Positions 759 to 50,703 are shown, numbered from the stretch's first letter. The stretch is DNA of 51,971 nucleotides from a virus (IMGVR_UViG_3300023274_000005:1-51971); one strand, 5' to 3'. The notes: a model not told the origin generated them from the letters alone. Numbers and translations: made by a program.

Positions 759-798
759 CGTGTGGAGTTTGGAAGGCGGCTCGAGCGGTTAGTTTAAC
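759..798 (+). repeat. Dispersed element, arm+core copy
   Basis: CGTGTGGAGTTT-N21-GTTTAAC directly before the RBS of gene 815. Confidence 0.75.
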
Positions 799-814
799 AC
801 GGTAGGGAGCCGCA

Positions 815-1018
815 GTGACGGTCACGCATTTCAAGATCAGGTTCCTGACTATTATATTAGGCGTCTGGGGGATTGTTGTCGCAGCCGCCTTGTATAAGTA
901 CCTTTTCCGCGACGGGCCGCTTCCCGATCCAGTACTGCTAGGTATACCTACGGGGGCTTGGCTAGTGGTGTTCCCGCCATTGCCCAGACCGAGGGAAGAG
1001 GCAAATGCAGAGGCTTAG
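815..1018 (+). CDS. Two-TM membrane protein
   Basis: Two hydrophobic stretches; GGGAG RBS. Confidence 0.65.
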   Translation: MTVTHFKIRFLTIILGVWGIVVAAALYKYLFRDGPLPDPVLLGIPTGAWLVVFPPLPRPREEANAEA

Positions 1019-1208
1019 TTACCTAGAGCAAGTGGCGTTCTCCATTGTGACCATTGGCGGAACGGGGTGGTTCTTGGGTACGGTAATTGAGCTGGTGAGA
1101 AGGAAGGTGACGCGTGCGAACACTAAGCCCCCAGTGGCGCTCGGTCCTGATCGGGTCGTGGGTCATGATTCTCGTCCTAAGCATAGGCTTCCTCATCCTC
1201 TACGTTGA
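1005..1208 (+). CDS. Small membrane protein
   Basis: N-terminal TM segment, RBS GGAAGAGG; 3' part overlaps the next gene. Confidence 0.5.
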   Translation: MQRLSYLEQVAFSIVTIGGTGWFLGTVIELVRRKVTRANTKPPVALGPDRVVGHDSRPKHRLPHPLR

Positions 1209-1452
1209 CAACAAGCGGACGCGCGAGTGCATGGCAACGTACATGCGTAAGGATGCAGCGGCTACGGCTCCGCGCCTTCAGGCAGCCGCTGAAAGGAACG
1301 CTGCCATGGACAAGCTCGTGGCGACAATGCTGACGGTCAAGACGGGTGCTGAGACGCGTAGGGCGTTGGAGGAGTACGACGCGACTACGGAGGCGGCTGA
1401 GACGAAGCGCCTAGCTAGCCCGCCGCCACCATTCCCGGAGGGATGTGCCTGA
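1114..1452 (+). CDS. Single-TM protein with coiled coil (possible lysis accessory)
   Basis: TM VLIGSWVMILVLSIGFLILYV, Ala-rich helix, Pro-rich C-terminus ending in Cys-Ala; RBS AAGGAAGG. Confidence 0.65.
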   Translation: MRTLSPQWRSVLIGSWVMILVLSIGFLILYVDNKRTRECMATYMRKDAAATAPRLQAAAERNAAMDKLVATMLTVKTGAETRRALEEYDATTEAAETKRLASPPPPFPEGCA

Positions 1453-2897
1453 TGGGCAAGGTCATTGACAAGCGCCTGTTCTTCAAGAAGGTGGGCTACG
1501 AGCCCCACCCGAAGCAGTGGCTGTTTCACGACAGCACTGCTCGCTTCAGGGTGCCTGTCTGTGGCCGGCGCTTCGGCAAGTCGCGTATGTCCTCTATGGA
1601 CGAAGCTCCTGGCTTGATGATGCCGAACCGGCGAGGCTGGATCGTGGGTCCGACCTACGATCTGGCCGAGAAGGAGTTTCGGGTTCTCTGGGACTTGTTC
1701 ATCATCCAGCTCGAGTTCGGTCGGAACAAGAAGGTCAAGAAGGCGTATAACAAACGTTCGGGAGACATGTACATTGAGTTTCCCTGGCGCACGCGCGTGG
1801 AATGTCGCTCTGCAGATCACCCCGAGAATCTGGTTGGTGAGAAGCTCGACTTTGCCATCATGTCTGAGGCCGCGAAGCATAAGAAGGATACCTGGGAGCG
1901 ATTCATTCGTCCTGCTCTTGCTGACAAGCGGGGCAATGCCTCATTCCCTACTACGCCTGAAGGCTTCAACTGGCTTCATGGTCTTTGGCAGGTGGGCCGT
2001 GATCCGAACGAGCCCCAGTATGAGTCCTGGCAGTTCCCGTCGTGGGACAATCCATACGTGTACCCACTTGGCCGTCAAGATCCGGAGATCCTCGGTATTG
2101 AGCGAACGACTGCTCACGAGTGGTTCCTTCAGGAATATGGCGCCGACTTCTCGGCGTTCGTAGGTAAGATCTATGGCGAGTGGCAGGAGAACATACATGT
2201 CACAGACGTCAAGTTTAACCCTGCATGGCCGAGCTACGTTGGTTACGACCCTGGCTACACCAACCCATGGGCTTGGGTGTTCTTCCAGATGGACCCTCAA
2301 GACAACGTGTACGTTTGGCGAGAGCACTACGCTCCGTACCTACAGCTCGCTGAGCACATCGCTCTTATGCGAAACCTGCCGGAGCCCGAAGGGTACCACC
2401 TGGATCTCGCCTTCGGTGACGCAGCTGATCCCGAGGCTTGTGTTGCGATCTCCCAGAACTTCGTACCCGCGTTCGCTGAACCGGAAGCTAAGAAGAATTG
2501 GCGAGAGGGTATCGACCTCGTCAAGAGCTTCCTGAAGCTCCAAGACGTTCTTAGCCCCGCTGGGAACTTGGTGGTGACGGATGAACATGGGACGCCTCTT
2601 AAGCGGCCCAAGCTCTTTGTTGATCATTCGTGCAAGAACCTCATCTTCGAATTCAACAACTATCGTGCTCCGGACACTCGCCCGGAACAAAACGTGCGGG
2701 AGCAGGCGAAGAAGCACGCTGATCATGCATTGGACGCACTCCGATACGGACTGATGCATATCGTCAAGCTCGGCTGCAATTCGCGACTCACCGACCTTTA
2801 CCAGGGTCTGAACGACCCTAACGAGAGTCGATTCGGTGACATGCTGGAACCTTCTGGTGATGGTGGGTTCTTCGACTGGGACAGTTTGGAGTTCTGA
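1452..2897 (+). CDS. terL: Terminase large subunit
   Basis: Walker A CGRRFGKS, VGPTY, Walker B AIMSEAA, TTPEGFNW, nuclease GYDPG and DHALDALRY. Confidence 0.97.
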   Translation: MGKVIDKRLFFKKVGYEPHPKQWLFHDSTARFRVPVCGRRFGKSRMSSMDEAPGLMMPNRRGWIVGPTYDLAEKEFRVLWDLFIIQLEFGRNKKVKKAYNKRSGDMYIEFPWRTRVECRSADHPENLVGEKLDFAIMSEAAKHKKDTWERFIRPALADKRGNASFPTTPEGFNWLHGLWQVGRDPNEPQYESWQFPSWDNPYVYPLGRQDPEILGIERTTAHEWFLQEYGADFSAFVGKIYGEWQENIHVTDVKFNPAWPSYVGYDPGYTNPWAWVFFQMDPQDNVYVWREHYAPYLQLAEHIALMRNLPEPEGYHLDLAFGDAADPEACVAISQNFVPAFAEPEAKKNWREGIDLVKSFLKLQDVLSPAGNLVVTDEHGTPLKRPKLFVDHSCKNLIFEFNNYRAPDTRPEQNVREQAKKHADHALDALRYGLMHIVKLGCNSRLTDLYQGLNDPNESRFGDMLEPSGDGGFFDWDSLEF

Positions 2898-5628: not shown

Positions 5629-5658
5629 TTGATTTTTCCTAGGGTCCCACTATATAAT
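5629..5658 (+). promoter_or_regulatory. Sigma70-like promoter for capsid operon
   Basis: TTGATT-N18-TATAAT upstream of GGAGG RBS. Confidence 0.7.
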
Positions 5659-10462: not shown

Positions 10463-10755
10463 TGAACTACTACAAGGTGACAGCACCTAAGGGTGAGGGC
10501 GATCAGATCGTTCCTCACCTGGGCATCTTCCAGCCAGGTGAGACGCGTCACTTCAGCCAGGACGAGATCGACCAGTACGTCGCCATGAACGGTGTTCCTC
10601 TCGAAGGTGAGCCCCTTCCGAAGGGATTCAAGATCGAGCGCGGCACCAAGAAGGCCGCCACCGAAGAGGCCGAGGAGCGGGAAGAGGCAGCCGTCACGGA
10701 GCAGGAGGAGAACGCCGCAGCGCTTCTCAAGCAGGCCCAGAAGGAGGGTAACTGA
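10462..10755 (+). CDS. Hypothetical protein
   Basis: Stop/start coupled on both sides; typical codon usage. Confidence 0.65.
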   Translation: MNYYKVTAPKGEGDQIVPHLGIFQPGETRHFSQDEIDQYVAMNGVPLEGEPLPKGFKIERGTKKAATEEAEEREEAAVTEQEENAAALLKQAQKEGN

Positions 10756-11696
10756 TGGCAATCGGCGTTGGCGCCAGCGGCGTTCTCGGCGTGTCACTCG
10801 AGACGGTTTCCGGGACGTATGTCGCTCCCGTGAAGTTCGTACCGTTCAACAGTGAGAGCCTTAACTTCATTACCGAGACCAACTTCCGTCGGTCCATCCG
10901 GAACAGTCCCGACGTGAACTTCGCGGTGCCCGGCAACACGCGCATCGAGGGCGACATCGAGATGGACGCCACGGACGACGTCGTTCCGTGGTTCATGTAC
11001 GCATCGCGTATGTCGGTCGTCAAGACCGGTGCCGGCCCGAACTACACCTACACCGGCACGCCGAACGCGAACGCCACACCGGCGAAGACGATGTCGATCA
11101 CGATCGTCCGCAACGGCATCGTCTTCGGGTACGTCGGGTGCGTGGTGGGCTCGTTCACATTCGGCATCGACGACGGCACGCTCACGTACAACGTGTCGAT
11201 CGTCGGGCAGGACGAAGCAACGCAGTCGGCACCCACCCCGACCTGGCCCACCACGACGCCGTTCGGTATGGGTCAGTACAGCATCGAGATCCCGACCTCG
11301 ACACCCGTGACCGACACCGACACGTTCGAGTTCCAGGTCGAGGACAACGCCGAGGCGAACTACCGTCTCAAGACGCCGTCACGTGGTGCACAGTTCGTCG
11401 CATTCGGCGAGCGCGAGGTCACGCTGTCGCTCACCCGCGACTTCGAGTCCAAGACCGACTACGACGCGTTCAAGGCGCTCACGTCGCAGACGCTGACCCT
11501 CACGGCCACCAAGGGTGCGAACAACTCGATCAGCATCGTCACGCCGGTGGCCCTGAAGGACACCTACGAGACCAACCTGGACTCCCAGGGAGACGTCGTG
11601 CGTGCGGAGATCGAATACCAGTGCCTGGTGGGCGCTGCGACGCCGTCATACACCCTGACAGTCAAGTCGCAGGAGACGCACGCCCAGCTGACGTAG
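10755..11696 (+). CDS. Major tail (tube) protein
   Basis: 313 aa, Thr-rich beta protein, strong codon bias, upstream of chaperone and tape measure genes. Confidence 0.88.
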   Translation: MAIGVGASGVLGVSLETVSGTYVAPVKFVPFNSESLNFITETNFRRSIRNSPDVNFAVPGNTRIEGDIEMDATDDVVPWFMYASRMSVVKTGAGPNYTYTGTPNANATPAKTMSITIVRNGIVFGYVGCVVGSFTFGIDDGTLTYNVSIVGQDEATQSAPTPTWPTTTPFGMGQYSIEIPTSTPVTDTDTFEFQVEDNAEANYRLKTPSRGAQFVAFGEREVTLSLTRDFESKTDYDAFKALTSQTLTLTATKGANNSISIVTPVALKDTYETNLDSQGDVVRAEIEYQCLVGAATPSYTLTVKSQETHAQLT

Positions 11697-11702
11697 CAGC
11701 GG

Positions 11703-11746
11703 AGAGGCGTGTGGAGTTTGAGTCTGCACGCCTCTACCAGTTAAAC
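11703..11746 (+). repeat. Dispersed element, arm+core copy embedded in a hairpin
   Basis: CGTGTGGAGTTT(11708)-N20-GTTAAAC; 9-bp stem AGAGGCGTG/CACGCCTCT. Confidence 0.75.
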
Positions 11747-11838
11747 AAGGTGGGAAGATGATCGAGGCAGTCGTCTTTGCTATCCACTTGTTCGAGTTTC
11801 AAGTGTTCATGTATTACCTGTTCAGAAGGAGAACAGCA

Positions 11839-18901: not shown

Positions 18902-19984
18902 ATGAGCTCCGAGATCCGCTACATCTTTGGCGATGTTCTCACCAATGAGGTCATCGAGGAGATCCCCTGCTTCGGCGTCTCGATCTCTGACAGCCTAGAC
19001 GGTGGCGAGTTTCGGGGCTCATTCGCCCTTGATCTAACCGGTAAGAACAATGCTGATCTGATCACTGCTACGCTGCCTGGCAAGACGTGGATCATAGTAG
19101 AGCGTAATGGTGTACCCATCTGGGGTGGGCTCAACTGGTCGCGCACCTACCAGAGCCAGGCTAAGAGCGTGCAGCTCTTTTCCAAGACGATGGATCAGTA
19201 TCTGACTCTGCGGAACATCGATACTGACCAGACGTTCGTAGGAGTCGATCCTCGTAACATCTTCAGGACGTTGCTATCCGACATGATGCTCACGGCTAAC
19301 ACTCCTCAGTGGGTACTGCCTGGTGTATTCGATACTGTAACGCCTGTCGACTTCAGCATACCTGGCTCGGAGCTTCAGTCCTACATAGAAGCCGTCGACA
19401 ACCTGAGTACGGTTCAGGATGGCTTCGAGTGGCGCGTCAACGTATCTAAGGCTGACGATGCATACAGCTGGTCCGTGCAAGTAGGCCTTCCGATGATCGG
19501 GCAGCCGCTGTCTGACTCTAGCGTGGCCTTCGATTACCCTGGCAACATCTTGAACTACTGGCAGAATGATACGCTTGGCGGTGCTGGCACTAACATCCAC
19601 GTTGCTGGTGCTGGTGAGGGTGATGCCATGGCAGTGGTGGAGATTGTGCATCAGGATCTGCTCGATGCCGGCTTCATCCGTATCGATCAGAACATCTCCC
19701 TCAAGCAGGTAGACGACATCGATCGCTTGGAGCAGCTGGCACAGGTTCAGGCGCAGATTCGTAAGGCACCTATGCCTGTCTACACAGTGGAGACCAAGGC
19801 CGATCGCGATCCGCAGTTTACCGACTGGACCTTGGGTGACTACGCTATCCTGAACTTTGAGGACGCGCTGCATCCTGAAGGACTACAACACGCCACACGC
19901 ATTCTGAAGTGGGAGTACACACCTCCGTCGAGCGACGCGACAGAAGAGGTTCGGCTGACCTTTGAAGGAGAGGATGCCGAATGA
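18902..19984 (+). CDS. Minor tail/baseplate hub protein
   Basis: VERNGVPIWGG, FDYPGNI, GAGEGD motifs typical of actinophage minor tail proteins. Confidence 0.8.
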   Translation: MSSEIRYIFGDVLTNEVIEEIPCFGVSISDSLDGGEFRGSFALDLTGKNNADLITATLPGKTWIIVERNGVPIWGGLNWSRTYQSQAKSVQLFSKTMDQYLTLRNIDTDQTFVGVDPRNIFRTLLSDMMLTANTPQWVLPGVFDTVTPVDFSIPGSELQSYIEAVDNLSTVQDGFEWRVNVSKADDAYSWSVQVGLPMIGQPLSDSSVAFDYPGNILNYWQNDTLGGAGTNIHVAGAGEGDAMAVVEIVHQDLLDAGFIRIDQNISLKQVDDIDRLEQLAQVQAQIRKAPMPVYTVETKADRDPQFTDWTLGDYAILNFEDALHPEGLQHATRILKWEYTPPSSDATEEVRLTFEGEDAE

Positions 19985-21100: not shown

Positions 21101-21200
21101 CCTGGTCAGCCAGATCAACAAGAACCCCGACATCAACCTCGTCGACATCAAGGCGGACGTATCTGGCCTCATCAAGAGGCCCGGAGAGGAACTGAAGTGA
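20922..21200 (+). CDS. Holin-like two-TM protein
   Basis: MKYSKLIAALLAGLVVAVPILTAGAQDGHLSLFEVLSTLATFFPAVVVGLSPAN; RBS GGAGGGAG. Confidence 0.7.
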   Translation: MKYSKLIAALLAGLVVAVPILTAGAQDGHLSLFEVLSTLATFFPAVVVGLSPANKLDTADLVSQINKNPDINLVDIKADVSGLIKRPGEELK

Positions 21201-33577: not shown

Positions 33578-34356
33578 TTCTTCTCTCGTGTAGTGGTGTA
33601 GTAGTCGAGGATCGTTTTCATGGTTACGGGTTCCTCTACCCCGATCACAGCCGGCATGCGGCAGCCACGCACCTTGGCCGTCGCGTTGTCCGTCTGTGCG
33701 GTCAGAAGCAAACGCTTCTGATCCCCGTCGACCTCCTGGTTGTACATGAAGAAGACGAGATCGGGAATCTGTGGGACCTTCATCTGCGTCTTACCGTTCA
33801 GCAGCGGCATCCACTTCTGCTTGCCGCTGTTGAGCTTGACGCGCTCGGCGTGAGCGATGAAGATCACATTCATCGGCAGGTCACGGTACAGGCGAATGAG
33901 GCGGAGCAGGCGAACCTGCATCTTACCCCACTCGCGAAGGGAAGGCACGTCCGCGTCGCGGCTCTCGTTCTCCGGATCGGCCTTCATCTCGACCATGACC
34001 TGTTCGCGGTTCTGTTCGTTGATCTCCGACAGCGAGTCCAGAACCACCGTCTGGTATCCGTGCCCGCCTGCCTTGAGGGCATGGTAGACACTGGTGTAGT
34101 CCTGCCAGGCGGTACACCTGAGCATCTCTACTTCCGGCCACTCCCGAAGCGTGACAGAACCGCCCTCAGCATCGAGGTACAGTACGTTACGCATAGTTGG
34201 AACAGCCGAAGCAGAACCAGCAAGCCAAGTCTTGCCAACGCCAGCCTCCCCGTAGAGGAGCATGTTGATCCTGTCGATGCCCTGCGTCTGTGGTCGCTGG
34301 ATCTTCAGCCCTGCGAAGTTGGTAGGGGTGAGAATCTCAGAAGCGGAACTCACCAT
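33574..34356 (-). CDS. Sak4/AAA_24-like ATPase (single-strand annealing)
   Basis: LLYGEAGVGKT, LDAEGG, VVLDSL, IFIAH. Confidence 0.88.
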   Translation of the reverse strand: MVSSASEILTPTNFAGLKIQRPQTQGIDRINMLLYGEAGVGKTWLAGSASAVPTMRNVLYLDAEGGSVTLREWPEVEMLRCTAWQDYTSVYHALKAGGHGYQTVVLDSLSEINEQNREQVMVEMKADPENESRDADVPSLREWGKMQVRLLRLIRLYRDLPMNVIFIAHAERVKLNSGKQKWMPLLNGKTQMKVPQIPDLVFFMYNQEVDGDQKRLLLTAQTDNATAKVRGCRMPAVIGVEEPVTMKTILDYYTTTREKK

Positions 34357-34570
34357 TCTTCACCCCCTTGACGAAGGCGTCCCACTCTTCGTGGGTGAAC
34401 GCCAAGACCTGATCAGGCCTGTTGCTGTTACGGATGAGGACGGAGCTGCCCACCTCGGCAACCTCGACGCACTGTCCACCGCTACAGAACGATGCCTTGC
34501 GCCACTGAGCCTGCTGCACCTCAACGCAGGAGCCGTTCGCGCAGTGTGCTGCGCGCTGCCACTCGCTCAT
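34337..34570 (-). CDS. DUF397 (BldB-family) protein with duplicated N-terminal motif
   Basis: WQRAAHCANGSCVEV + WRKASFCSGGQCVEVA…IRNSNRPDQVLAFTHEEWDAFVKGVKNGEF. Confidence 0.92.
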   Translation of the reverse strand: MSEWQRAAHCANGSCVEVQQAQWRKASFCSGGQCVEVAEVGSSVLIRNSNRPDQVLAFTHEEWDAFVKGVKNGEFRF

Positions 34571-36143: not shown

Positions 36144-36556
36144 TTGACGACCTTGTCGGTTCGGAAGCCGAGGACGAACTTGCGGTCCTTCAGATCTTCC
36201 TCTTCCGGCCCCAACAAGTTCTTCGGGTGGATGGTCTGGAAGCCATGAGGCTTCATGCACAGCGTACAGAGAAGCCACCCGTACTTCTTGGAGCGACCTC
36301 TAGCGACGCAGGTCAGTCCCGTGCCCTGCTTGGCCAGTGCGTTGGGAAGTACGTAGGGCGGGTGACACTCACACATCTTCGTCGGTGCTTGCCACATAGC
36401 CTCGACAGTCACCCGCTCTAGGCTCTTGTAGCCGTACTCTCCTGTCCCGTTGCCGTTGTCCTTCTCGAAGGCGAAGAGTACATTGCCCTGCCTGACGGCC
36501 TCGACAAAGGCGTCGGCCTCGTCGTTGTCCTCGACGGCGATCAGTACGAGCCTCAC
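36140..36556 (-). CDS. Hypothetical Cys-containing protein
   Basis: CECH and CTLC pairs; GGAGG RBS. Confidence 0.65.
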   Translation of the reverse strand: MRLVLIAVEDNDEADAFVEAVRQGNVLFAFEKDNGNGTGEYGYKSLERVTVEAMWQAPTKMCECHPPYVLPNALAKQGTGLTCVARGRSKKYGWLLCTLCMKPHGFQTIHPKNLLGPEEEDLKDRKFVLGFRTDKVVK

Positions 36557-36864
36557 TTGACCTCCAGAACGCGAATGAGTTCCGACAGGAACTCGTTGGT
36601 GACTCGTTGCTGTTGCAGCACCTGCTCGAGCAGCTCAGCATGTGCTAGGTTGGCGTACATGTTGCACTGCTGCATGTTCCACTGGTTGTCGGCGATCAGC
36701 TCCTTCGCCTGGACGCTCTGCATGAAGGCATAGATCTCGTCCTTCACCCTAGTACCTTTGGCAAAGGCTGCCTGCCTTGCCTCACCCTGGCCCTTGTAGA
36801 TGTCCTCGCGGGACTTGAGGGCTCGCGAGAACATCTCGTACATGTTCCTCAGGTTTACGGACAT
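36553..36864 (-). CDS. Hypothetical helical protein
   Basis: GAGGAG RBS before ATG 36864. Confidence 0.65.
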   Translation of the reverse strand: MSVNLRNMYEMFSRALKSREDIYKGQGEARQAAFAKGTRVKDEIYAFMQSVQAKELIADNQWNMQQCNMYANLAHAELLEQVLQQQRVTNEFLSELIRVLEVK

Positions 36865-36865
36865 T

Positions 36866-37019
36866 GTTTTACACTCCTCTCGTATGCCCACACAACTCCA
36901 CACGCACATCTGAATACGTTAATTGTTAAGAAACCATTTAACGTATACCGCGAAGTCACGTTAAATGTACTCTCACCTGCTCTCACAATTCCAGTGAGAG
37001 TACACCGGGCGTGTGGAGT
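36866..37019. promoter_or_regulatory. AT-rich structured intergenic region bounded by outward-facing element arms
   Basis: Arms at 36893-36904 (-) and 37010-37019 (+); three internal inverted repeats. Confidence 0.6.
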
Positions 37020-37034
37020 AGTGAAGCCATACGG

Positions 37035-41028: not shown

Positions 41029-41125
41029 GATTAGACGATGATTAGACGAGTTAGCAGGTGGGTTAGACGCGAGGACGTAGTTGTTTGAACCCACTACGTA
41101 AGGGCTTTAGACGCTTGAGTTAGAC
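41029..41125. repeat. TTAGAC(G) direct-repeat array
   Basis: Copies at 41031, 41042, 41063, 41107, 41120 in an intergenic gap. Confidence 0.7.
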
Positions 41126-41140: not shown

Positions 41141-41476
41141 TCAGACGTTTCGAATCTCGCCGCCACCACGCTGCTCGAGTTCAACCTGCTCCGCCAAGGC
41201 ATCGCGGACCGCCTGTGCACGAGTCGCAGACCCCGGCAGCACTGGGAAGCTCCGCTCACGCTGACCGCGCTCGACCGGCTCCGGAATTGTTCCGTCTGGA
41301 CGAAGCTGAACCGTCCAGCCGATGCCGTTGTACTCGCAGTTGGTTCCAGGGCAGGTGAGTGTGACCAGCTGTCCACCGACCTCTGCTGCTCCCTTCGGGA
41401 TTCGCCTTCTGCTCTCGACCTTGCCGGTCAGTCCGTCCCGCGGACACTGACTTGCTTCGTCCCAGCTGATAGACAC
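41141..41476 (-). CDS. Hypothetical zinc-ribbon-like protein
   Basis: CPRD…CPGTNC. Confidence 0.6.
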   Translation of the reverse strand: MSISWDEASQCPRDGLTGKVESRRRIPKGAAEVGGQLVTLTCPGTNCEYNGIGWTVQLRPDGTIPEPVERGQRERSFPVLPGSATRAQAVRDALAEQVELEQRGGGEIRNV

Positions 41477-41478: not shown

Positions 41479-41673
41479 CTACCCCCAGATGAACCAGGAC
41501 ACGACCATGATCGTGCCGAAGAACAGGATCAGAGAGAAGATGACCAGCGTGACGAACGCCCAGTCGCCTCCACTACTACCCTTGCGATGAAGGGCCTCCA
41601 GCGTACGGATACGCTCGTTGAGGTCCCGTAGTCCCAGCAGCACGCCTTCCCAGCGGGGGTCGTTGTTTATCAT
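41479..41673 (-). CDS. Coiled-coil protein with C-terminal TM
   Basis: LNERIRTLE; WAFVTLVIFSLILFFGTIMVVSWFIWG. Confidence 0.6.
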   Translation of the reverse strand: MINNDPRWEGVLLGLRDLNERIRTLEALHRKGSSGGDWAFVTLVIFSLILFFGTIMVVSWFIWG

Positions 41674-42170
41674 CGGACAGCTGCCTCCAGGCGCTCGATC
41701 CGAGCGTCCTGGTCCTGCGTGATACGTACGAGGTCCTTGATGCGCTGCTCCAGCTGGTGGAGTCGCGTCTGCGGCTGACGTTTCCGTTCGACGAAGTCCT
41801 TGAAGATGTCCTCGACGGGCGCCTTGCACAGCACCCACTTCGACTGCGCCTTGCCACCGCCTCGCCGCAACTGCTCGACGCAGCCCAGCTCGACCAGCGT
41901 GTTCATGATCTTGGTGTAGTACGGGTTCGCGATGTTCAGATCCGCGAACAGTCGCGTCAGGTGGCCGGTGTAAACGTCCACCTCGGACACGGGCTCGAGC
42001 TCTTCGCCCGGGGGCAGCTCCTTGCGACTCTGCTTCAGCATCTCCTCGTACACACGCACAGCGTGGTCGAAGAGAGCCGGAGTAGGCTTCTCGTCGTCAC
42101 TCACAGTCACGCTCCAGTTGTTCGTAGAGCCCTTCCATGGCTCTTCGGTCTTGACGAAGCTCGGCGTCAT
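41670..42170 (-). CDS. Winged-helix-like protein with C-terminal coiled coil
   Basis: YYTKIMNTLVELGCVEQLRRGGG…W; heptad C-terminus. Confidence 0.6.
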   Translation of the reverse strand: MTPSFVKTEEPWKGSTNNWSVTVSDDEKPTPALFDHAVRVYEEMLKQSRKELPPGEELEPVSEVDVYTGHLTRLFADLNIANPYYTKIMNTLVELGCVEQLRRGGGKAQSKWVLCKAPVEDIFKDFVERKRQPQTRLHQLEQRIKDLVRITQDQDARIERLEAAVR

Positions 42171-42427: not shown

Positions 42428-43021
42428 CTACTCCGCCTCTTCGAGGACCTGCTCGACGGTCGCGGTCTCGGTGACCGTCTCGTCCTTCTTCGCGGCCTTC
42501 TTGGAGGCCTTCTCGGCCGCCGCCTGCTTCGTGGCCTTGACGCGCTCGACCTTGGCGTCCCACCAGGCGATGCCCTCCTCGGCCTTGAGGACGACCTTGC
42601 GACCCGGCGCGTACGGCTGGCCGGTCTCCGGGTTGATCGCGTCGCCGGCGTACTGCGGGAACGGGTTCTTGCTGTTCGGGCCGTTGTTCTTGACGTAGGA
42701 GTAGACCTCCTGCGGCTTGACCTCGGTCTTGCCCTCGGGCATCTGACCGTTCTTCTTGAGGTGCTCCGTCAGCACCTTGGCGAACTCGACCGGGGCGATG
42801 AAGCCCTCCGGCACGGCCGGTCGGGTGGTCTTGCTCTCCTTGGCCGGCTTCTCGTCGGCGGTCGGGGCCTCGACGGTGTCCTCGGCGGCGTCCGCCGGCG
42901 CCGGGGCGTCCACGTCGAAGTCGGGCTCGGTGAAGTCGGGGGTGGTGGTCTCGGTCGTCATCTCGGTGGTCTCCTGGGTCTCCTGCGCGGCCTTGCTGCC
43001 GCGACGTCCTCGCACTGCCAT
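42428..43021 (-). CDS. Probable abundant DNA-binding protein (acidic N-terminus, HTH-like core, Lys/Ala tail)
   Basis: Very high GC3, own promoter and terminator; IAPVEFAK…KPQEVYSYVKN. Confidence 0.7.
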   Translation of the reverse strand: MAVRGRRGSKAAQETQETTEMTTETTTPDFTEPDFDVDAPAPADAAEDTVEAPTADEKPAKESKTTRPAVPEGFIAPVEFAKVLTEHLKKNGQMPEGKTEVKPQEVYSYVKNNGPNSKNPFPQYAGDAINPETGQPYAPGRKVVLKAEEGIAWWDAKVERVKATKQAAAEKASKKAAKKDETVTETATVEQVLEEAE

Positions 43022-43506: not shown

Positions 43507-43537
43507 ATTATAGCTGAGGTCCCGCGGCACCCTTCAA
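43507..43537 (-). promoter_or_regulatory. Early-type promoter
   Basis: TTGAAG-N19-TATAATTAAGT; resembles the promoter at 46397-46426. Confidence 0.55.
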
Positions 43538-44028
43538 GGGGCAACTTTCATCTCAGAATTGCCCGCAGTAGGTCCAGGCTCGGCGTCTCCGGCTTCGCAG
43601 GGTGCGATGCAAGGCTTCGGCGTAGGAGGCTCGATAGGTCGGGGCGATTCCTCTTCAGGGTTCGGCTCTCTGACCGGTGTTGCAGTCTCTTCTGCCGTCG
43701 GCTCGGGGGCTGACGTGGTAGGTTCATCTTGCACCCCCTCCCGGGCCCGTGTGGTGTTTTGCTTCGACGACTTCGGGGCTTGTTTAACCCGACGCGTGGG
43801 AATCGTTACAGACTCCACACGGGCCTTGGTGCTCTTCGTGCTCTTCGTAGGAACAGGCGTCACGTTACACGTGGTGCAGCTCCCGAAGTCCTGTCGAGGC
43901 GTACCCATTGGCGTGGGGGTCACGACAGGGGTGTAGTCCTTGTGCTCGATTGCCATGACGTGACCGACACCCACGGCGGGCAGCAGTCCGACGCCTACGA
44001 TGGCTGCGAACAATCCTAACGGTTTCAT
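43534..44028 (-). CDS. Exported/membrane-anchored Pro/Thr-rich protein
   Basis: N-terminal hydrophobic MKPLGLFAAIVGVGLLPAVGVG; low-complexity P/T/E body; GGAGG RBS. Confidence 0.65.
   Translation of the reverse strand: MKPLGLFAAIVGVGLLPAVGVGHVMAIEHKDYTPVVTPTPMGTPRQDFGSCTTCNVTPVPTKSTKSTKARVESVTIPTRRVKQAPKSSKQNTTRAREGVQDEPTTSAPEPTAEETATPVREPNPEEESPRPIEPPTPKPCIAPCEAGDAEPGPTAGNSEMKVAP
43748..43821. repeat. Second full symmetric dispersed element, inside a CDS
   Basis: CGTGTGGTGTTT-N22-GTTTAAC-N21-AGACTCCACACG, flanked by GGCC on both sides. Confidence 0.75.
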
Positions 44029-44288
44029 GTCACCTCCTCTTCTTCCCGATATGCCAACGGCCACAGAAGTCGCAGACATATGCATCCTTGTTGTTCCTCT
44101 TTGCGCCGTTGACCATTTACCCAGACGAAGTGCTGCCTGGGCCATGTCTCTGGCGGTGCACGATCGGGATGTGGCCTACCTGCGCAGGCGTACGAATCGT
44201 ACAGGCCATCTATGATGGTGATGCCAAGGTACTTCCTGCACCGATAGCATCGCTTCCTGTCGGGATAGATCCAGGTCAGTCCACGCAT
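44025..44288 (-). CDS. Cys-rich hypothetical protein, possibly frameshifted
   Basis: GGAGGTG RBS; CYRC; an alternative frame near the 3' end encodes AYVCDFCGRWHIG. Confidence 0.45.
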   Translation of the reverse strand: MRGLTWIYPDRKRCYRCRKYLGITIIDGLYDSYACAGRPHPDRAPPETWPRQHFVWVNGQRRKEEQQGCICLRLLWPLAYREEEEVT

Positions 44289-44418
44289 GCTATCACCTCC
44301 AAGTTGAGTACCCCATCGGGTGGACGGAGTTCCGGCTCCATCCACCCTCATGCAGTCCTCATCAATGGGTGTATCCTGTGCAGTTCTAACGTCAGACCAT
44401 GACTCTGCCCTCCCTTCT

Positions 44419-44501
44419 CGCTCCGTACACCGGATTCGAACCGGCGCTTCCCCCTTGCCCTGTCCTCAGAGGGCGGATCCCTAACGGAATCTCCACGGAG
44501 C
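44419..44501 (-). tRNA. Atypical tRNA-like gene (possible Leu-GAG-derived; 8-nt anticodon loop)
   Basis: Acceptor GCTCCGT/ACGGAGC, T-loop TTCGAAT, anticodon stem GCCCT/AGGGC with loop CTGAGGAC; no encoded CCA. Confidence 0.55.
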
Positions 44502-44543
44502 CCCCATCCCATGGTGCCTGTACACCGAATGGAGGTGTAATGC

Positions 44544-44684
44544 CTATCCGAACAGGTACAGTGCTACGCCGCCGACGAGTCCGCCTACGCCGACGACTAC
44601 CGCGAATGCGGTTCCGACCAGCTCGCCGCACGCCAACGTAGGACCATCCCAGTTGCCGTCACGGAGCTTGAACGGGTTCCTCAC
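44544..44684 (-). CDS. Small membrane protein
   Basis: GTGA overlap with upstream stop; C-terminal TM. Confidence 0.5.
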   Translation of the reverse strand: MRNPFKLRDGNWDGPTLACGELVGTAFAVVVGVGGLVGGVALYLFG

Positions 44685-44923
44685 AGCACGTACCCACCGG
44701 GCCAGATCTGGATTCGCTTGTCCTGTTCGATCTTGTAGCTCGGGTCGACGACGACCTTGTAGCTGGCGTTCGGGTAGAGCCGGCTGCCCGGCGTCTTGAG
44801 GACGACCTTCTTCTTGCCGTACACCTCGGGGTCCTTGTCGCGGATCTCGCACAAGGCCTCGATCAGCTCGGCCAGGGTGTAGTCGTCCTTGGGCGCCTTG
44901 ATCGGCGACTTCTCTTGGGCCAT
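44681..44923 (-). CDS. Hypothetical protein
   Basis: Coupled to bldC stop; high codon bias. Confidence 0.65.
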   Translation of the reverse strand: MAQEKSPIKAPKDDYTLAELIEALCEIRDKDPEVYGKKKVVLKTPGSRLYPNASYKVVVDPSYKIEQDKRIQIWPGGYVL

Positions 44924-45135
44924 CAGACGTACCCTTCCGTGTTGCTCTGGCTAAAAAGCTCCCCCAGGAGCAGGCGAACTTCGGACTCGTGGAACCGACG
45001 GTGCCCACCAGGCGTCTTGATGCTGCTGATGCGGCCAGCAGCAGCCCAGCGGGTCACCGTCTTAGGGTCGACGCGGAACAGTCTGGCCACCTCACTGGGG
45101 GTGAGCAGTCTGTCCTCGTCGTCACTCAGCGGCAT
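44923..45135 (-). CDS. bldC: BldC-like MerR-family developmental regulator
   Basis: LLTPSEVARLFRVDPKTVTRWAAAGRISSIKTPGGHRRFHESEVRLLL closely follows Streptomyces BldC as recalled (LLTPAEVATMFRVDPKTVTRWAKAGKLTSIRTLGGHRRY). Confidence 0.9.
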   Translation of the reverse strand: MPLSDDEDRLLTPSEVARLFRVDPKTVTRWAAAGRISSIKTPGGHRRFHESEVRLLLGELFSQSNTEGYV

Positions 45136-46138: not shown

Positions 46139-46222
46139 TATCTCCGGCAGGAATCGAACCTGCTACAAACGCCTTACCCCATGCTGCAGCGGGAGGCTGC
46201 TCTGCCATTGAGCTACGGAGAC
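46139..46222 (-). tRNA. tRNA-like gene with canonical acceptor/D/T arms but enlarged anticodon arm
   Basis: GTCTCCG/CGGAGAT, TA, GCTC-AATGGCA-GAGC, GCAGG-TTCGATT-CCTGC; 27-nt irregular anticodon arm. Confidence 0.65.
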
Positions 46223-48024: not shown

Positions 48025-48580
48025 CTAAGGAACGATCTTGCCGGGCGGGTCGATCATGACCACGTCGCCCTTAACACGCAGCACGAACGTGTGCTCCGTC
48101 GGATCCGAACTACCGTACCGGCAGTACAGGTGGTCCTCGTCGACCTGCATCACCCCGAGCTCGAGGTGCCGAATTGTATTGTCGTCAGTGAGCGCAGGGG
48201 CATCGTGCCTGGTGCACCAGATCTGGAACTTCACTTGTCCTCCTCGAACTTCACGGTACCACTGAAGGCAGTACCCTTGATGTCGTCATCGGTCAGACGA
48301 CCCTCTGCGTACGCCCTTCGCATCTCCTCGGCACCCTCCTCGTCCTGATCCTCGATCAGGTACGTGTAGGTGACCTTCACGATCTTGGTCACGAGTGGTT
48401 CCCTTCCCCGTAGGTCCTGCCGCACGTGTCACACGGCTCGTGGTCCGCAGCGGCCTGGTGGGGGTGCGGCATGTTGGCCAGAATGGCCTTCTCCAGCTCG
48501 GCAGCCTCACGAACGGTCAGCTTGCTGTCCAGTTGTGTCTGCTCCAGAGCGGCCCAGATGGCGTAGCGCAGCTTGCTCAT
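48025..48580 (-). CDS. Three small coupled hypothetical genes (48025-48234, ~48231-48392, 48389-48580)
   Basis: Overlapping stop/start codons and RBSs. Confidence 0.55.
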
Positions 48581-48894
48581 CGTCCGTCCTTCTTGAAGTA
48601 CATCAGCGACCCGCGGCAGTTGCAGTCCTCGTCAAAGAACGGCTCTGCCCCACTGACTCCGGCCAGCATGAACACCGAGCGGTCGAACGGGTTCTTCGAG
48701 CTGTACCGCGTCCTCGGGTGGTTCTTGCAGACCAGGATCTTGTGGTAGCTCCTGTCCTCCCAGTCCACGTCGGCCTCATCCAGCGGAATCATCTCCCAGC
48801 TGAAGGCCGGCTGCACCGGTGGCTTGAACAGCTTCGGCGAGTCCTCGATCAGGCGACGGTGAATTACCGTCGCCTGCGTCTCCAGTTGCTTCAT
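48577..48894 (-). CDS. Hypothetical protein
   Basis: CKNH…CNC; directly downstream of a dispersed-element copy. Confidence 0.6.
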   Translation of the reverse strand: MKQLETQATVIHRRLIEDSPKLFKPPVQPAFSWEMIPLDEADVDWEDRSYHKILVCKNHPRTRYSSKNPFDRSVFMLAGVSGAEPFFDEDCNCRGSLMYFKKDGR

Positions 48895-48910: not shown

Positions 48911-48950
48911 GTTAAACTACCTCGAGCAGGTAGCTTCCAAACCCCACACG
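48911..48950 (-). repeat. Dispersed element, arm+core copy
   Basis: Minus strand CGTGTGGGGTTT-N21-GTTTAAC; spacer shares GGAAG…GCTCGAG with the copy at 759. Confidence 0.75.
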
Positions 48951-49061
48951 CACGATTGGATCGCGAAGCGATCTTCGGGCCTGTGAGGAATGGAGGTCAC
49001 CCTTCTAGGTACGCGATGGCTGCTGCTCCGCAGACGGTGAAGACGATCAGGAACACAATGG

Positions 49062-49262
49062 TCATAGCTCTACCACCTTCTGCTCGAGCACCTGGTAGCC
49101 AATGGAACCCTCGGAGTACAACAGGCCTACGATCTCGCCCACGGTCACGTCCTCCGGATTGATGGCATCGTCGCCGGCGAGCTCCCGATCGATCTCCGAA
49201 ACCCACTCCTGTAGGTCCTTCAGGGTCTCGTCGACCTCGATGGTCACGGTTAGCCGTGTCAC
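49062..49262 (-). CDS. Hypothetical acidic protein
   Basis: GGGAGG RBS, GTGA overlap. Confidence 0.55.
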   Translation of the reverse strand: MTRLTVTIEVDETLKDLQEWVSEIDRELAGDDAINPEDVTVGEIVGLLYSEGSIGYQVLEQKVVEL

Positions 49263-49639
49263 ATCCGCCTCCCTTGTGCGTTGCTCACCACGTCACCAGT
49301 CTGGTCTTGCAGCACCGTGGTGTTGTAAGACCCTTGAGTCGTGTTCGCGTTCCGCATCGACTTCATCGTCCCCGGCGCTTTGTCGACCGTCTTCGTACCT
49401 GTGCCCTTGGCCGCGACCATCTTGATGATGGATGCGCCTCCGCGCCCGCCCGGCACACCCTTGAGCGACCGCTCAAACGTGTTCTGCATCTTGTACCCCA
49501 GCGGCTTCGACTTCTTCTTGGCCGGAACGAAGTCCGTGCTCTGACGGCGAACCGTGTTGTCTGCCTGCCGCCACCTCTGAGCCAGAACCTTTTTGCGGTT
49601 CTCCTCGAGTTTTTGTTGCAGGTTGCTCTTCGGCATCAT
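49259..49639 (-). CDS. Basic low-complexity hypothetical protein
   Basis: AGGAGG RBS before ATG 49639. Confidence 0.55.
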   Translation of the reverse strand: MMPKSNLQQKLEENRKKVLAQRWRQADNTVRRQSTDFVPAKKKSKPLGYKMQNTFERSLKGVPGGRGGASIIKMVAAKGTGTKTVDKAPGTMKSMRNANTTQGSYNTTVLQDQTGDVVSNAQGRRM

Positions 49640-49792
49640 CGCCTCCTGTTTGGGGTTGCGGTGGTTTGGAGGGTAGGTGTGCGGAGGGTTTTGGGGTGGG
49701 TGTGTTAGTGGTTGAAGTGTTTTGTTTTTCTTTTTAGTATACCTCAGGTTCTCTAGGACCATTCAAGTGGTCTCAGCTGAAAAGCTGAGTGA

Positions 49793-50182
49793 CTACCAAC
49801 CTCTACGAGTCCTAGGATCGAGCCTTCTTTCCCGCGAGGTCGTGAGTCGCAACACCCGAGCCGGTGGCCTACCGGCCGCTCCGGACGGGCCGGACGCCTT
49901 CGTCATCTCGTAGGCCTTGTCGAGAATGGCCGTGAGAAGGTGCATACTGAGGTAGAACTTGTTCGTATGCATGTCCCAGTGCCTGACCAGCGCCGAATTC
50001 GGGTCGACTCCGGCGCCCACGCTCTCTCCCATGAACCCCTCGTGCAGAGCCTGAGCGAACTCGGGAAGGGCGATCCACCGTTGGAACTCCTCCTCGTTTT
50101 CGAACTGGATACGGAATGCCAAACCCGGCCTTGTCGAGTCTGCTTCGGTTACCAAGGTGACATTGTACTCGTAGATGATCAC
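49793..50182 (-). CDS. Hypothetical protein
   Basis: GAGGGA RBS; promoter TTGCGT-N17-TATAAT upstream at ~50234-50262. Confidence 0.6.
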   Translation of the reverse strand: MIIYEYNVTLVTEADSTRPGLAFRIQFENEEEFQRWIALPEFAQALHEGFMGESVGAGVDPNSALVRHWDMHTNKFYLSMHLLTAILDKAYEMTKASGPSGAAGRPPARVLRLTTSRERRLDPRTRRGW

Positions 50183-50703
50183 TTTTGGTTTCCCTCTCTA
50201 GGTGAGATAGGTGATCGAATTAATCACTATATATATTATAACGTAATAGAGCTGATAACGCAAGCGGCTCGATCTTTGGTAATCCCTCCTACCTCACGAT
50301 ATTTGGCTTTAGTTAGAAACCTATATGTCTGAAACCTCAGTAATTCGCTACCTTTCTACGATCCTGTAATATCGGTCTATTCAGGTTGGAATCTAGCACT
50401 TTTCTCTATTCGATCCGCTATTCAGATTTATTAATTGCCTAATTAGACTACAGCATTATACAAGTATTAATAACTAGGTATAATAGTAAATCCTTCATTC
50501 GAATTCCTAGTTTCATACGTGTATAACATACCCCTTACTAAAATAACGCCCTCAATGCGAGATCGTAACTCTTTACCTACTATTTGCAAGCGTAAACACG
50601 GTTATGAGACCCTAGGAATTCAATGCCGATTACTACCCCGGATATGGAACCTAAGTCCGTGTGGAGTACTGACCGGAGCCAGTACCCCACGTCCCCTTCC
50701 GGA

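Follow-up and report, generated by a model that had tools for sequence, protein, structure and literature searches.

Arm-core elements in the phage genome

The window (IMGVR_UViG_3300023274_000005:1-51971, the whole stretch of 51,971 nucleotides analyzed here) is the nearly complete 52-kb genome of an uncultivated soil phage. The phage looks like a lytic, actinophage-like siphovirus with two long transcription units; it looks lytic because no annotated repressor, integrase or partition gene was found among roughly 80 ORFs scanned, many small ones of which are without assignment. It carries genes for 7-deazaguanine synthesis. Along the genome recurs an element composed of a 12-base arm (CGTGTGGAGTTT) and a short palindromic core (GTTWAAC), and its sites mark module boundaries: before the structural block, the tail genes, the queD-to-polymerase genes, the recombination genes and the early small genes. 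The sites in the window are as follows.

712-723, minus strand: degenerate antisense arm CGTGTGCTGTTC with 3 mismatches, 35 nt upstream of S1
759-798, plus strand: S1, sense arm (759-770), 21-nt spacer and core (792-798)
11698-11746, plus strand: S2, sense arm (11708-11719), 20-nt spacer and core (11740-11746), with a hairpin formed by the arm and its 5' flank with the spacer
20704-20715, minus strand: S6, antisense arm of degenerate sequence (CGTGCGGGGTTT) in the gap from gene 19981-20691 to gene 20730-21200
23137-23148, minus strand: perfect arm without a core, inside CDS 22980-23399, kept in relatives G001, G012 and G013
23418-23464, plus strand: S5, antisense arm (23418-23429) followed after 19 nt by TAGAC-N6-TAGAC in place of a core
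29871-29942, unstranded: S3, two arms (29871-29882, plus; 29931-29942, minus) around a shared core (29902-29908), between the queC-like and queD-like genes
36866-36904, minus strand: S4, sense arm CGTGTGGAGTTG and degenerate core GTAAAAC, which abuts the ATG of gene 36553-36864
36917-37021, unstranded: upstream half of S4, in which three TTAACG words (36917, 36938 and 36959; 21-bp phase) lie within an AT-rich stretch and the antisense arm occupies 37010-37021 (plus)
43748-43821, unstranded: S8, two arms (43748-43759, plus; 43810-43821, minus) around a core (43782-43788)
48911-48950, minus strand: S9, sense arm CGTGTGGGGTTT and core with 21 nt between them; the ATG of gene 48577-48894 follows after 16 nt
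50658-50669, plus strand: antisense arm CGTGTGGAGTAC with 2 mismatches, in the gap 50183-50703

The coordinates that a first-pass annotation had given for these elements all hold, and the degenerate copies at 712-723, 36866-36904, 37010 (2 mismatches) and 50658 are as it described them. Of the arms that it called lone, the one at 23137-23148 does lack a core, and the one at 23418 is not truly lone, with the TAGAC repeats taking the place of the core. A second iteron cluster adjoins the gene for a RepA_N-like winged-helix protein.

Gene 815-1018, which opens the structural block, has its GTG 16 nt downstream of S1; on the other side of S1 is an early gene under a strong TATAAT promoter (window 1-30). 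S2 is flanked by the tail protein gene 10755-11696 on one side and by a mini-ORF and the tail-chaperone gene on the other, its core ending 11 nt before an ATG. The S4 spacer contains the RBS (GAGGAG); in seven relatives the site reads GGAGG-GTTWAAC-(A)ATG, with the ATG 0-2 nt after the core. This placement of the RBS inside the spacer at sites of the 36904 type was absent from the first-pass annotation. S8 may lie within the 3' part of ORF 43534-44145.

Enrichment, conservation and geometry

Both blocks are over-represented in the window. The arm has 19 matches at up to 2 mismatches against 4.29 expected, a count reached in 0/100 shuffles, and 11 at up to 1 mismatch, where the reversed pattern used as a control has 0. 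The core occurs 6 times against 1.57 expected (again 0/100 shuffles), and a recount agrees that five of the six sit 19-22 nt 3' of an arm; the sixth (2213-2219) is inside the terminase gene without a nearby arm. These five cores yield seven arm-core pairs, two of the cores being flanked by two arms each. The arm and core counts would predict about 0.009 pairs, and none of 200 third-order Markov simulations of the window produced any pair. Of the 11 arms at up to 1 mismatch, 9 are intergenic in a genome that is 9.6% non-coding by the gene map (binomial P = 3e-8); the count drops to 7/11 if ORF 43534-44145 truly reads through the 43.8-kb element.

Loss of the element from related phages had been named beforehand as evidence that would speak against a network. 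It is present at about nine orthologous places in 8/8 close relatives fetched, and we regard the arm-core network as real and cis-acting in this phage. Orthologous copies of S1 were found in 8/8 close relatives and at 15/15 TerL loci of at least 80% identity, and relatives have a CACGCA-type box at the position equivalent to the 712-723 arm. The S3 element is at the same site in 9/9 genomes, with two arms in eight and with the antisense arm and core only in G013; S9 has orthologous copies in G001, G003 and G012. Lone or antisense arms without a core are conserved as well. The S5 antisense arm is at the corresponding position in 8/8 close relatives, and S6 in seven relatives is an antisense arm within a small ORF whose reading frame differs. 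Relatives keep the 37010 arm in the form CGTGTGGAGTACTGAAGC, which is joined by a core in G002 and G011, and the interval equivalent to 50183-50703 also holds arms in G002, G005, G011 and G012. From one subfamily of the clade to another the arm sequence changes, which is what reading by a phage protein would lead one to expect. A separate observation, new relative to the first pass, is that distant relatives have variant arms (CCTGTGGGT, CCTGTGAGA), which are their most repeated words.

The geometry was taken from 55 arm-core copies in nine genomes. Two conserved blocks flank a spacer of 19-22 nt and variable sequence. The invariant arm positions are C1, G2 and G9; the core is the palindrome tGTTWAACa, whose central T/A is free and toggles between orthologs. 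Among 13 two-arm elements, 10 have arms that are unlike at positions 8 and 10-12, with no compensating change; the arms are therefore read separately and do not pair with each other. Single-arm copies follow the gene direction in 26/29 cases and stand 0-20 nt ahead of a start codon; for every sense copy there is one no more than about 50 nt away, and the arm orientation tracks the two divergent halves of the genome. The core-to-start distance ranges over 0-47 nt across site classes, with intervening sequence that is unconserved between classes. Because the spacers vary, the core center is free and the arms of one element vary independently, the element fits recognition as double-stranded DNA by a protein or by RNA polymerase.

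A hairpin at two site classes

Pairing of the arm and its flank with the spacer, over 8-18 bp, occurs only at S2 (after the major tail gene) and S3 (after queC), the sites where the upstream gene ends directly at the element; on the minus (sense) strand of S3 the arm pairs with its own spacer at about 29908-29949. The S2 hairpin has z = -5.1 in the window and z<=-2.2 in 6/6 orthologous copies; the S3 sense hairpin has z = -6.8 in the window and z<-2 in 6/8 copies. The hairpin, which the first-pass annotation had not noted, covaries (observed values matched in 0/500 shuffles), is rich in G-U pairs and ends 0-4 nt before the core. At S1 (0/8 copies) and S4 (0/7) no hairpin reaches z<-2, nor does any among the 19 copies of S1, S4 and S9 together, and spacer covariation is absent from these three. 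A fixed second box, ACAYGGGCC, accompanies most copies in the distant relatives G008 and G010 and is able to pair with the arm. An intrinsic terminator of hairpin and U-tract was considered and rejected: the hairpin is followed by GUUWAAC with 2-3 U, and the sense hairpins are absent from the terminator scan.

Promoter features and candidate DNA-binding proteins

A TTG stands at the 3' end of the arm in 37/55 copies (the remaining 18 have CTG or no match), and 31 of these 37 have the geometry TTGnnn-N16-18-TTWAAC. The core does not qualify as a canonical sigma-70/sigma-A -10, since TTTAAC/TTAAAC has neither A as its second base nor T as its sixth. TANNNT occurs at a fixed offset from the core in only 8/55 (offset +3) and 5/55 (offset -2) copies, and a sigma-70 consensus scan of the window listed none of the arm-core -10 positions. 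Canonical sigma-70-type promoters form a separate class before early genes, including those of two putative DNA-binding proteins, in keeping with the distinction drawn at first pass. In G002, G004 and G011 a canonical TTGCTT-N18-TATAAT promoter lies ~45 nt downstream of the S2 element, and several relatives have a TATAAT-like box ~100 nt upstream of S1; the element is therefore often inside a transcribed leader. The window sequence was found in no RNA run.

Two genes encode candidates for a protein that would act on the element.

41670-42170, minus strand: winged-helix protein with a C-terminal coiled coil, sigma-70-type promoter (42330-42302) upstream
42428-43021, minus strand: 197-aa protein with a weak HTH_17/Nu1-like fold, sigma-70-type promoter (43056-43028) upstream

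The first has orthologs in 13/13 relatives and 219 unnamed homologs. The second, with orthologs in 12/13 relatives, is a lead only. Among the LuxR-, BldC- and Xis-like proteins suggested earlier, no LuxR-like protein appeared in the scans, and a 70-aa HTH_17/MerR-type protein, Xis/BldC-like, is encoded at 44923-45135.

Models for the function of the element

The element is most likely a signal for turning transcription on or for blocking it, and the promoter (including bidirectional promoter) and operator readings offered at first pass are the leading explanations. Our tentative proposal is that the arm-core copies are phage-factor-dependent promoter modules at module boundaries, two internal ones of which are combined with a terminator-like hairpin. 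The 5' part of the arm is conserved (CGTGTGGnG); centered ~30 bp from the core, it would be the binding site of a phage-encoded factor. The TTG usually straddling the arm 3' end would be a weak -35, and TTWAAC, the final hexamer of the core, 16-18 bp downstream of this -35, would be an AT-rich, non-canonical -10. Host sigma-A alone would read such a promoter poorly, which would leave the sites silent until the phage had made an early protein. With one palindromic -10 in common, two-arm copies would act as promoters in both directions. At S2 and S3 the otherwise free spacer may have evolved pairing with the arm in the upstream mRNA, and the resulting hairpin, terminator-like or stabilising and ending at the core, would combine a stop and a restart within 60 bases.

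The fixed two-block geometry with its free core center, the separately read arms, the TTG-to-TTWAAC spacing, the sense orientation, the module-boundary sites, the arm changes between subfamilies, the separate class of canonical promoters, the covarying hairpin where a gene ends at the element and the precedent of the ESAS signals (see below) count for this promoter model. The absence of A2 and T6 from TTWAAC, the frequent position inside a transcribed leader, the conserved coreless arms and the failure to find sigma, WhiB-like or RNA polymerase genes among the roughly 80 ORFs count against it. With the core as a -10, moreover, the transcript at S2 would start too late and lose its RBS, and at S4, where the RBS is in the spacer and the ATG 0-2 nt past the core, the start would likewise be late.

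A less probable rival is a polar operator or roadblock, much as cluster A stoperators work: a phage DNA-binding protein seated on arm and core in transcribed DNA would halt RNA polymerase that arrives from sigma-A promoters upstream, or slow it down. Early transcription would then be kept out of the following module for as long as the block lasts, or the protein would turn genes off at a later stage. The asymmetric, multi-copy, sense-oriented sites in short intergenic gaps beside start and stop codons suit a roadblock. So do the positions of the S1 and S4 elements downstream of sigma-70-type promoters or in leaders, that of S2 upstream of a canonical promoter in three relatives, and that of S4, which covers RBS and ATG just past a TAACGT box. 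S1 would be a barrier where one is needed, between the strong-promoter early gene and the structural genes; coreless lone arms make sense as additional binding sites, two-arm and back-to-back arms would allow cooperative binding or looping, and at S2 and S3 hairpin and bound protein would reinforce the stop. The roadblock leaves unexplained, however, the fixed arm-core distance and an AT-rich palindrome placed like a -10; the phage looks lytic, without a repressor, integrase or partition gene among the ORFs scanned; and if all sites block, no promoter can be seen that would serve the replication and tail genes.

Recognition in the mRNA, with the arm and GUUWAACA as the landing site of a phage or host RNA-binding factor, is unlikely. 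Possible roles at this level include nut-like antitermination (hairpin plus a boxA-like word), an RNase III-type processing site such as T7 has, and a translational operator by the RBS. Single-arm copies are sense-oriented and directly before an RBS, which arm and core bracket at S4; the covarying S2/S3 hairpin has many G-U pairs that count only in RNA, and the ACAYGGGCC box of G008 and G010 points the same way. In a nut-type antiterminator a boxB hairpin adjoins a boxA word that NusB/NusE bind, and an N- or Q-like factor takes part; U-GUUUAACA (also UGUUUAACA) may resemble the 3' part of E. coli rrn boxA. Yet most sites are without a hairpin, and no N- or Q-like protein was recognised in the phage. 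A palindromic core, its T/A toggle and the antisense arms that two-arm elements keep in all genomes would be useless to a one-stranded signal; hairpins (0/19) and spacer covariation are absent at S1, S4 and S9, the core-to-start distance varies from 0 to 47 nt between site classes, and Rfam has no family matching the element.

Something besides a promoter, an operator or roadblock, or an RNA-level element is a further rival, and a role in another DNA transaction (replication through DnaA-box-like arms or primase/origin signals, packaging, recombination or DNA modification) is improbable. The arm complement contains TCCACA, presumably the 3' two-thirds of the actinobacterial DnaA box (6 of 9), but the invariant C1, G2 and G9 fall outside this match. 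S5 joins an arm to TAGAC iterons, the second iteron cluster neighbors the RepA_N-like gene, arm orientation follows the genome halves and 7-deazaguanine synthesis genes are present; against this, about nine dispersed gene-start sites are unlike an origin, pac/cos or att arrangement, no integrase was found in the ORF scan, and the arm orientations, reasoned from site positions, do not form a fork trap. The recombination or MITE-like mobile unit also suggested at first pass finds no support, since the spacers differ, only arm and core are common to the copies, these occupy the same gene junctions in nine genomes, and neither integrase nor transposase was found among the ORFs scanned.

Comparison with known phage signals

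T4 middle promoters (MotA box) and phi29 p4 sites are activator-dependent phage promoters, in which the binding site of the factor lies beside a weak -35 or stands in for it, at a set distance from a canonical -10. A single factor activates several promoters at module boundaries, and in bidirectional promoters a symmetric -10 can serve both strands. The arm-core element would share this design under the promoter model and differs in its non-canonical -10-like word, and no MotA-, AsiA- or p4-like protein was found in this phage. The stoperators of cluster A mycobacteriophages (e.g. L5) are asymmetric sites of 12-13 bp, present in many copies in short intergenic gaps near starts and stops, with an orientation tied to the direction of transcription; they act on transcribed DNA, and each is one box, to which the immunity repressor of a temperate phage binds. 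The arm-core element shares the asymmetry, the copy number, the orientation and the short intergenic gaps, and is set apart by a second block at a fixed distance, by two-arm forms and by a phage in which lysogeny genes were not found among the ORFs scanned.

The form typical of ESAS, an imperfect inverted repeat of 15-17 bp with a short variable spacer, has a counterpart in the pairing of 8-18 bp at S2 and S3 and in the arm and ACAYGGGCC of G008 and G010, and none at S1, S4 and S9. The ESAS/SAS signals of cluster K mycobacteriophages contain an operator-like repeat, and their function is still unverified (PMC3203893, PMC11373665, PMC12699233); the present interpretation of ESAS is a putative SigA-like promoter combined with an inverted repeat (PMC11373665). 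ESAS/SAS and arm-core are alike in being multi-copy, intergenic and in a single orientation just before start codons, in having, for arm-core at some site classes, an imperfect inverted repeat with a better conserved left half and a variable spacer, and in a consensus that shifts between subclusters while being kept at orthologous genes. They are without sequence similarity. The 13-bp SAS over the RBS, 3-9 bp from the start, is a property of SAS that this phage lacks, and the second ESAS block is a 17-bp repeat 4-14 bp away, whereas that of arm-core is a 7-9-bp palindrome 19-22 nt away. Unlike ESAS, arm-core has two-arm forms around one core that span 72-74 bp, and its -10-like word is not TANNNT. 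Compensatory changes back a hairpin at two arm-core site classes, whereas Pope et al. found none for ESAS.

Microbacterium phages have cluster-specific start-proximal repeats of their own, and by TerL these phages are among the nearest isolated relatives (34-36% identity). The repeats are an 18-bp asymmetric one in cluster EC, an 18-bp inverted repeat in EG, a 30-bp repeat in EI and SAS/ESAS-like ones in EF (PMC7302621). They resemble arm-core in having 5-12 copies per genome in short intergenic gaps, in the same orientation and 14-30 bp before starts, in being conserved within clusters despite diverged flanks, and in belonging to lytic phages, with functions that are unknown (PMC7302621). Their sequences, as described in the text, differ from ours, and none is described there as bipartite with a fixed spacer, as one- or two-armed around a palindrome, or as overlaid by a hairpin (PMC7302621). 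Such phage-specific signals are known from other actinobacterial phages and understood in none. The kind of signal is already known from ESAS/SAS and from the Microbacterium cluster repeats; what is new here is this sequence and its architecture.

Conservation and distribution of the arm-core element

The arm-core element, a 12-base arm followed 19-22 nt downstream by the palindromic core GTTWAAC, had been proposed in the first-pass annotation from sites found by eye, and the counts in the window bear the proposal out. Arms are enriched (19 matches at ≤2 mismatches vs 4.3 expected), cores are enriched (six vs 1.6), and the 19-22-nt spacing is beyond chance: there are seven pairs where approximately 0.009 would be expected, and 200 Markov simulations produced no pair at all. 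On our own gene map, which has a non-coding share of 9.6%, nine of 11 arms at ≤1 mismatch are intergenic, a number that falls to seven of 11 if the ORF at 43534-44145 is real over its full length. Sense arms (those pointing with local transcription) are also seen inside coding sequence, at 22607-22618 in gene 22505-22996 and at 23137-23148 in its neighbor 22980-23399; these are kept in three to four relatives, perhaps for the protein and perhaps as sites.

Related phages carry the element as well. A terminase search returned 80 related loci, and all eight full-length close relatives fetched (terminase 80-89% identical, as opposed to 55-62% for distant ones) hold 5-14 arms at ≤1 mismatch, with 0 in the reversed control. 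Over nine genomes there are 55 arm-core pairs, with the consensus sCGTGTGGaGTtt, t/g-G, a spacer of 19-22 nt and tGTTWAACa; spacers of 19, 20, 21 and 22 nt are found in 7, 26, 17 and 5 copies, respectively. The elements occupy the same gene junctions in each of the nine genomes.

Site classes of the arm-core element in the window
S1, 759-798 (+): ahead of the first structural gene; sense arm and core; also at 15/15 close terminase loci, several near-identical
S2, 11698-11746 (+): junction of tail protein gene and chaperone gene; sense arm and core
S3, 29871-29942: queC/queD junction; two arms in 8/9 genomes, antisense arm and core only in relative G013
S4, 36866-36904 (-), 36.9 kb: sense arm and core; antisense arm upstream
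S5, 23.4 kb: antisense arm, then TAGAC repeats
S6, 20.7 kb: antisense arm; within a small ORF in relatives
S8, 43.8 kb: two arms
S9, 48.9 kb: sense arm and core
Unnamed site, 50.7 kb: antisense arm

The S6 arm falls in two different reading frames of the small ORF in relatives, which argues for selection on the DNA or RNA rather than on a protein. The exact arm is missing from five of seven distant relatives. The top repeated 10-mers in the five distant genomes fetched are variant arms (GCCCGTGTGG, CCCTGTGGAG, CTCCTGTGAG, GGCCCTGTGGGT and GCCCTGTGGG), which again precede the chaperone gene and other genes; the element is thus a signal shared across the family, its sequence drifting along with the phage lineage. 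The arm-core element is clearly real, conserved and functional.

Anatomy of the element

Sense pairs account for 39 of the 55. Among the 16 antisense pairs, 13 have their core in common with a sense arm; of the other three, one is placed back-to-back with such an arm, the partner of another is degenerate, and the last is alone. The two arms of an element are identical in just three of 13 two-arm cases, and their differences, at positions 8 and 10-12, are uncompensated. Pairing of the far arms as an RNA stem was rejected, as mismatches occur in 10 of the 13 two-arm elements. The center of the core switches between T and A among orthologs, and the palindrome reaches 9 bp. The sense/antisense layout, the independence of the arms and the toggling palindromic core indicate that the common denominator of the copies is read as double-stranded DNA, each arm singly and along with a symmetric core.

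The distance from core to start codon is constant inside a site class and differs among classes. At S4, whose spacer contains the RBS (GGAGG-GTTTAAC-AATG), it is 0-2 nt; S2 has 11 nt, S1 and S9 have 14-20 nt, and the two-arm sites have 44-47 nt, with the second arm approximately 8 nt upstream of the RBS. At 36917-36964, in the AT-rich center that separates the back-to-back arms of S4, three TTAACG words on alternating strands are spaced exactly 21 bp apart. The word is found again at the S4 position in three relatives (G001, G005 and G012), and the series resembles an operator array or an unwinding region.

An RNA hairpin at S2 and S3

At S2 a strong hairpin is formed (6/6 copies, z ≤ -2.2), one strand of it being the arm with its non-conserved 5′ flank and the other the 3′ part of the spacer, and the same arm-spacer hairpin forms on the sense strand of S3 in six of eight copies. 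It is missing at S1 (0/8), S4 (0/7) and S9 (0/4), and is seen at 2 of 16 antisense arms. In an alignment of 15 hairpin copies, 85% of cells pair (76.7 ± 2.0 when shuffled) and two-sided changes number 12 cells (4.8 when shuffled); none of 500 shuffles attains either value, and slid controls are much lower. The numerous G-U pairs indicate that the structure matters in RNA. The hairpin is an addition at two sites that lie directly after a stop codon. An Rfam scan of the window gave nothing at the arm-core elements, its single match being the tRNA at 46139-46222.

Genome setting and canonical promoters

The window, a single IMG/VR virus record, is 51,971 bp long (completeness estimate 95%; G+C 58%). 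Its two ends overlap imperfectly around a long T-run, and gggggaccggtacgttggaag is present at both; the record is thus a circular or terminally redundant genome that was cut within a divergent control region. The + strand gene block (96-22246) opens with one small conserved early gene, 96-542, whose reading frame was decided by tblastn, followed by terminase, portal, protease, major head protein and tail proteins. The - strand block runs from the right end down to 22505 and holds small early genes without assigned function, helicase, exonuclease, a Sak4-like annealing protein, primase, the queC/queD/queE/folE set, DNA polymerase and an HNH nuclease. The folE-, queE-, queD- and queC-like genes (27965-30832) suggest 7-deazaguanine modification of the phage DNA; a DpdA-like transglycosylase was not recognized beside them, and a conserved 255-aa protein (26501-27268) carries no annotation. 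No integrase, partition gene or repressor was recognized in the window, and PHROGs and Pfam scans of approximately 80 ORFs lacked any sigma factor, WhiB, RNA polymerase, LuxR/GerE, integrase or repressor.

A DNA-level search against isolated phages gave no match to the window. The nearest terminases of isolated phages, at 34-36% identity, are those of Arthrobacter and Microbacterium phages. The recombination module contains a 77-aa DUF397 protein (34337-34570; Pfam E = 7e-21); this domain is typical of Streptomyces-like actinobacteria, and the protein also points to an actinobacterial host. Among public sequencing runs, the window sequence is listed only in three leaf-litter DNA runs and in no RNA run.

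The earlier statement that the element does not match the canonical promoters stands, as the sigma-70-type promoters form a set of their own.

Sigma-70-type promoters in the window
1-30, rightward: window start, T-run and TATAAT
5629-5658: upstream of the protease gene
46425 (-): upstream of the tRNA
43056 (-): upstream of a putative DNA-binding protein
42330 (-): upstream of another putative DNA-binding protein

At the record ends (1-30 and 51880-51971) the T-run is followed by GTTATAACTATATTATAAT, a strong rightward promoter kept in relatives, downstream of which relatives have core-like words (GTGTTACC, GTTTAAC) without any arm. The tRNA (46139-46222, -; Rfam 45 bits) has a TTGAAT-N18-TATAAT promoter directly upstream; ARAGORN assigns four-base anticodons to it and to a second tRNA-like stretch (44420-44499, -), and there is little conserved coding sequence across 43728-44680. 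In four genomes a mini-ORF (MIEAV..., 16-27 codons; 11758-11838 in the window) separates the S2 core from the tail-chaperone gene. In three others (G002, G004 and G011) it is replaced by another mini-ORF (MV...GLL) and a TTGCTT-N18-TATAAT promoter downstream of the S2 element. Approximately 50 nt upstream of the S1 arm is a single-copy leader motif, GCTGA-N3-CCTA-(hairpin)-AACCAGC (680-711), found also at relatives' terminase loci (L010, L012-L014, L016-L022 and others). Its inner hairpin covaries among relatives by eye (CGGC/GCCG, AGGA/UCCU, GGGU/GCCC), and several relatives have a TATAAT-like box just upstream of the motif, which may serve the late operon as a structured leader RNA.

Possible mechanisms

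We tentatively favor promoters that need an early phage protein, with the two-arm sites as bidirectional promoters and S2 and S3 as sites that would combine a terminator with a promoter. TTG stands at the 3′ end of the arm in 37 of 55 pairs, with TTWAAC 16-18 bp beyond in 31 of those 37, and the centers of arm and core are approximately 30 bp apart, a promoter-like geometry. The -10-like word of the core lacks the two bases required by sigma-A, hence the preference for dependence on a phage protein. Such a promoter set would offer tightly controlled parts for actinobacterial genetics. Further ideas were rejected. A tighter spacing after anchoring on TTG did not appear, the spread being no narrower than that of the raw spacer. 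An ECF-sigma reading (GGAGT as GGAAT, GTT as -10) would require a gap of 21-24 nt, and promoters of the sigma-R/H type have one of approximately 18 nt. The core as a sigma-B-type -35 has no GGGTAT-like word at the proper distance, by eye.

The strongest points against promoters are that a start at S2 or S4 would lose the RBS or ATG and that the element is frequently inside the transcribed leader. Both the start distances at S2 and S4 and the leader location agree with the leading alternative, in which the element would be a polar operator or roadblock comparable to the stoperators. We consider it rather unlikely. It comes without a recognized repressor gene and leaves the -10-like placement of the AT-rich palindrome unexplained. 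A signal acting at the RNA level would account for the hairpins and the sense bias but not for the palindrome, its free center or the conserved antisense arms, and is rather improbable.

A more speculative scheme, which we regard as doubtful, is that one early phage protein reads the arm-core code as polar, genome-wide punctuation, a combined terminator-promoter without a phage sigma factor. The protein would stop or release polymerase where an arm faces it; where arm and core face downstream, it would restart transcription from the non-canonical palindromic -10, which could fire in either direction. At internal sites the 12 bases of the arm would double as the 5′ strand of the RNA hairpin, one sequence thus serving DNA and RNA. 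If true, this would give the start-associated repeats of actinobacteriophages, as a whole class, a model that can be tested. Other DNA transactions are very unlikely, and a replication fork trap was rejected because the pattern of arm orientations does not match.

Candidate reader proteins

The best candidates for the reader are conserved early genes behind sigma-70-type promoters. Other conserved early genes lie at 41141-41476 and 51211-51582. Gene 41670-42170 (166 aa) encodes a winged helix with a C-terminal coiled coil (model mean pLDDT 82). Foldseek matched the model to winged-helix proteins only (best RepA_N initiators, CooA, ArsR and MarR, all E ≥ 2e-3), and a profile search against solved structures matched the protein to coiled coils only (best E 0.0075). 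Its 219 homologs are all unnamed metagenomic proteins. The residue before its PYY helix (N/V/M) tracks the arm types CGTGTGG/CCTGTGG/CCTGTGAG in 14 genomes, a correlation confounded by relatedness. Gene 42428-43021 (197 aa) has a weak HTH_17/Nu1-like fold in Atlas and no match in the solved-structure profile search (best E 1.9), and gene 44923-45135 encodes a 70-aa HTH_17/MerR-type protein.

TAGAC-N4-8-TAGAC clusters (six matches in the window vs 0.32 expected) lie after the S5 arm (23449-23552) and beside the winged-helix gene (41032-41125), and TTAGAC repeats are retained at the S5 position in distant relatives as well. The clusters resemble the iterons of replication origins, of which there would be one or two; given these locations, the winged-helix protein may be an origin binder and not the arm reader.

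Comparison with known start-associated repeats

To our knowledge, reports since 2011 have described start-proximal repeats, each specific to its cluster, for many clusters of actinobacteriophages, none with a proven function. The arm-core element is unusually informative among them, with its two spaced blocks, one- and two-arm forms, lone arms and a hairpin at only two site classes, and its arm sequence varies by subfamily over a large clade of uncultivated phages, in which one marker protein has 219 homologs. These features open clear, cheap tests and a co-variation route to the reader protein.

Cluster K mycobacteriophages have the SAS and ESAS repeats (PMC3203893). In later papers, ESAS are interpreted as putative SigA-like promoters plus an inverted repeat, a possible binding site for a regulator (PMC11373665), and in 2025 the SAS/ESAS role was still termed unverified (PMC12699233). 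Start-proximal repeats of unknown function are also described for Microbacterium phages, a different set for each of the clusters EC, EF, EG and EI (PMC7302621). A search of the literature by description, not by motif sequence, found no account of the arm-core motif. The element belongs with the start-associated actinophage repeats as a new form. Unlike SAS/ESAS and the Microbacterium repeats as described there, it is bipartite, with a set spacing and one or two arms around a common palindrome; lone arms are conserved as well, and two of its site classes bear an RNA hairpin.
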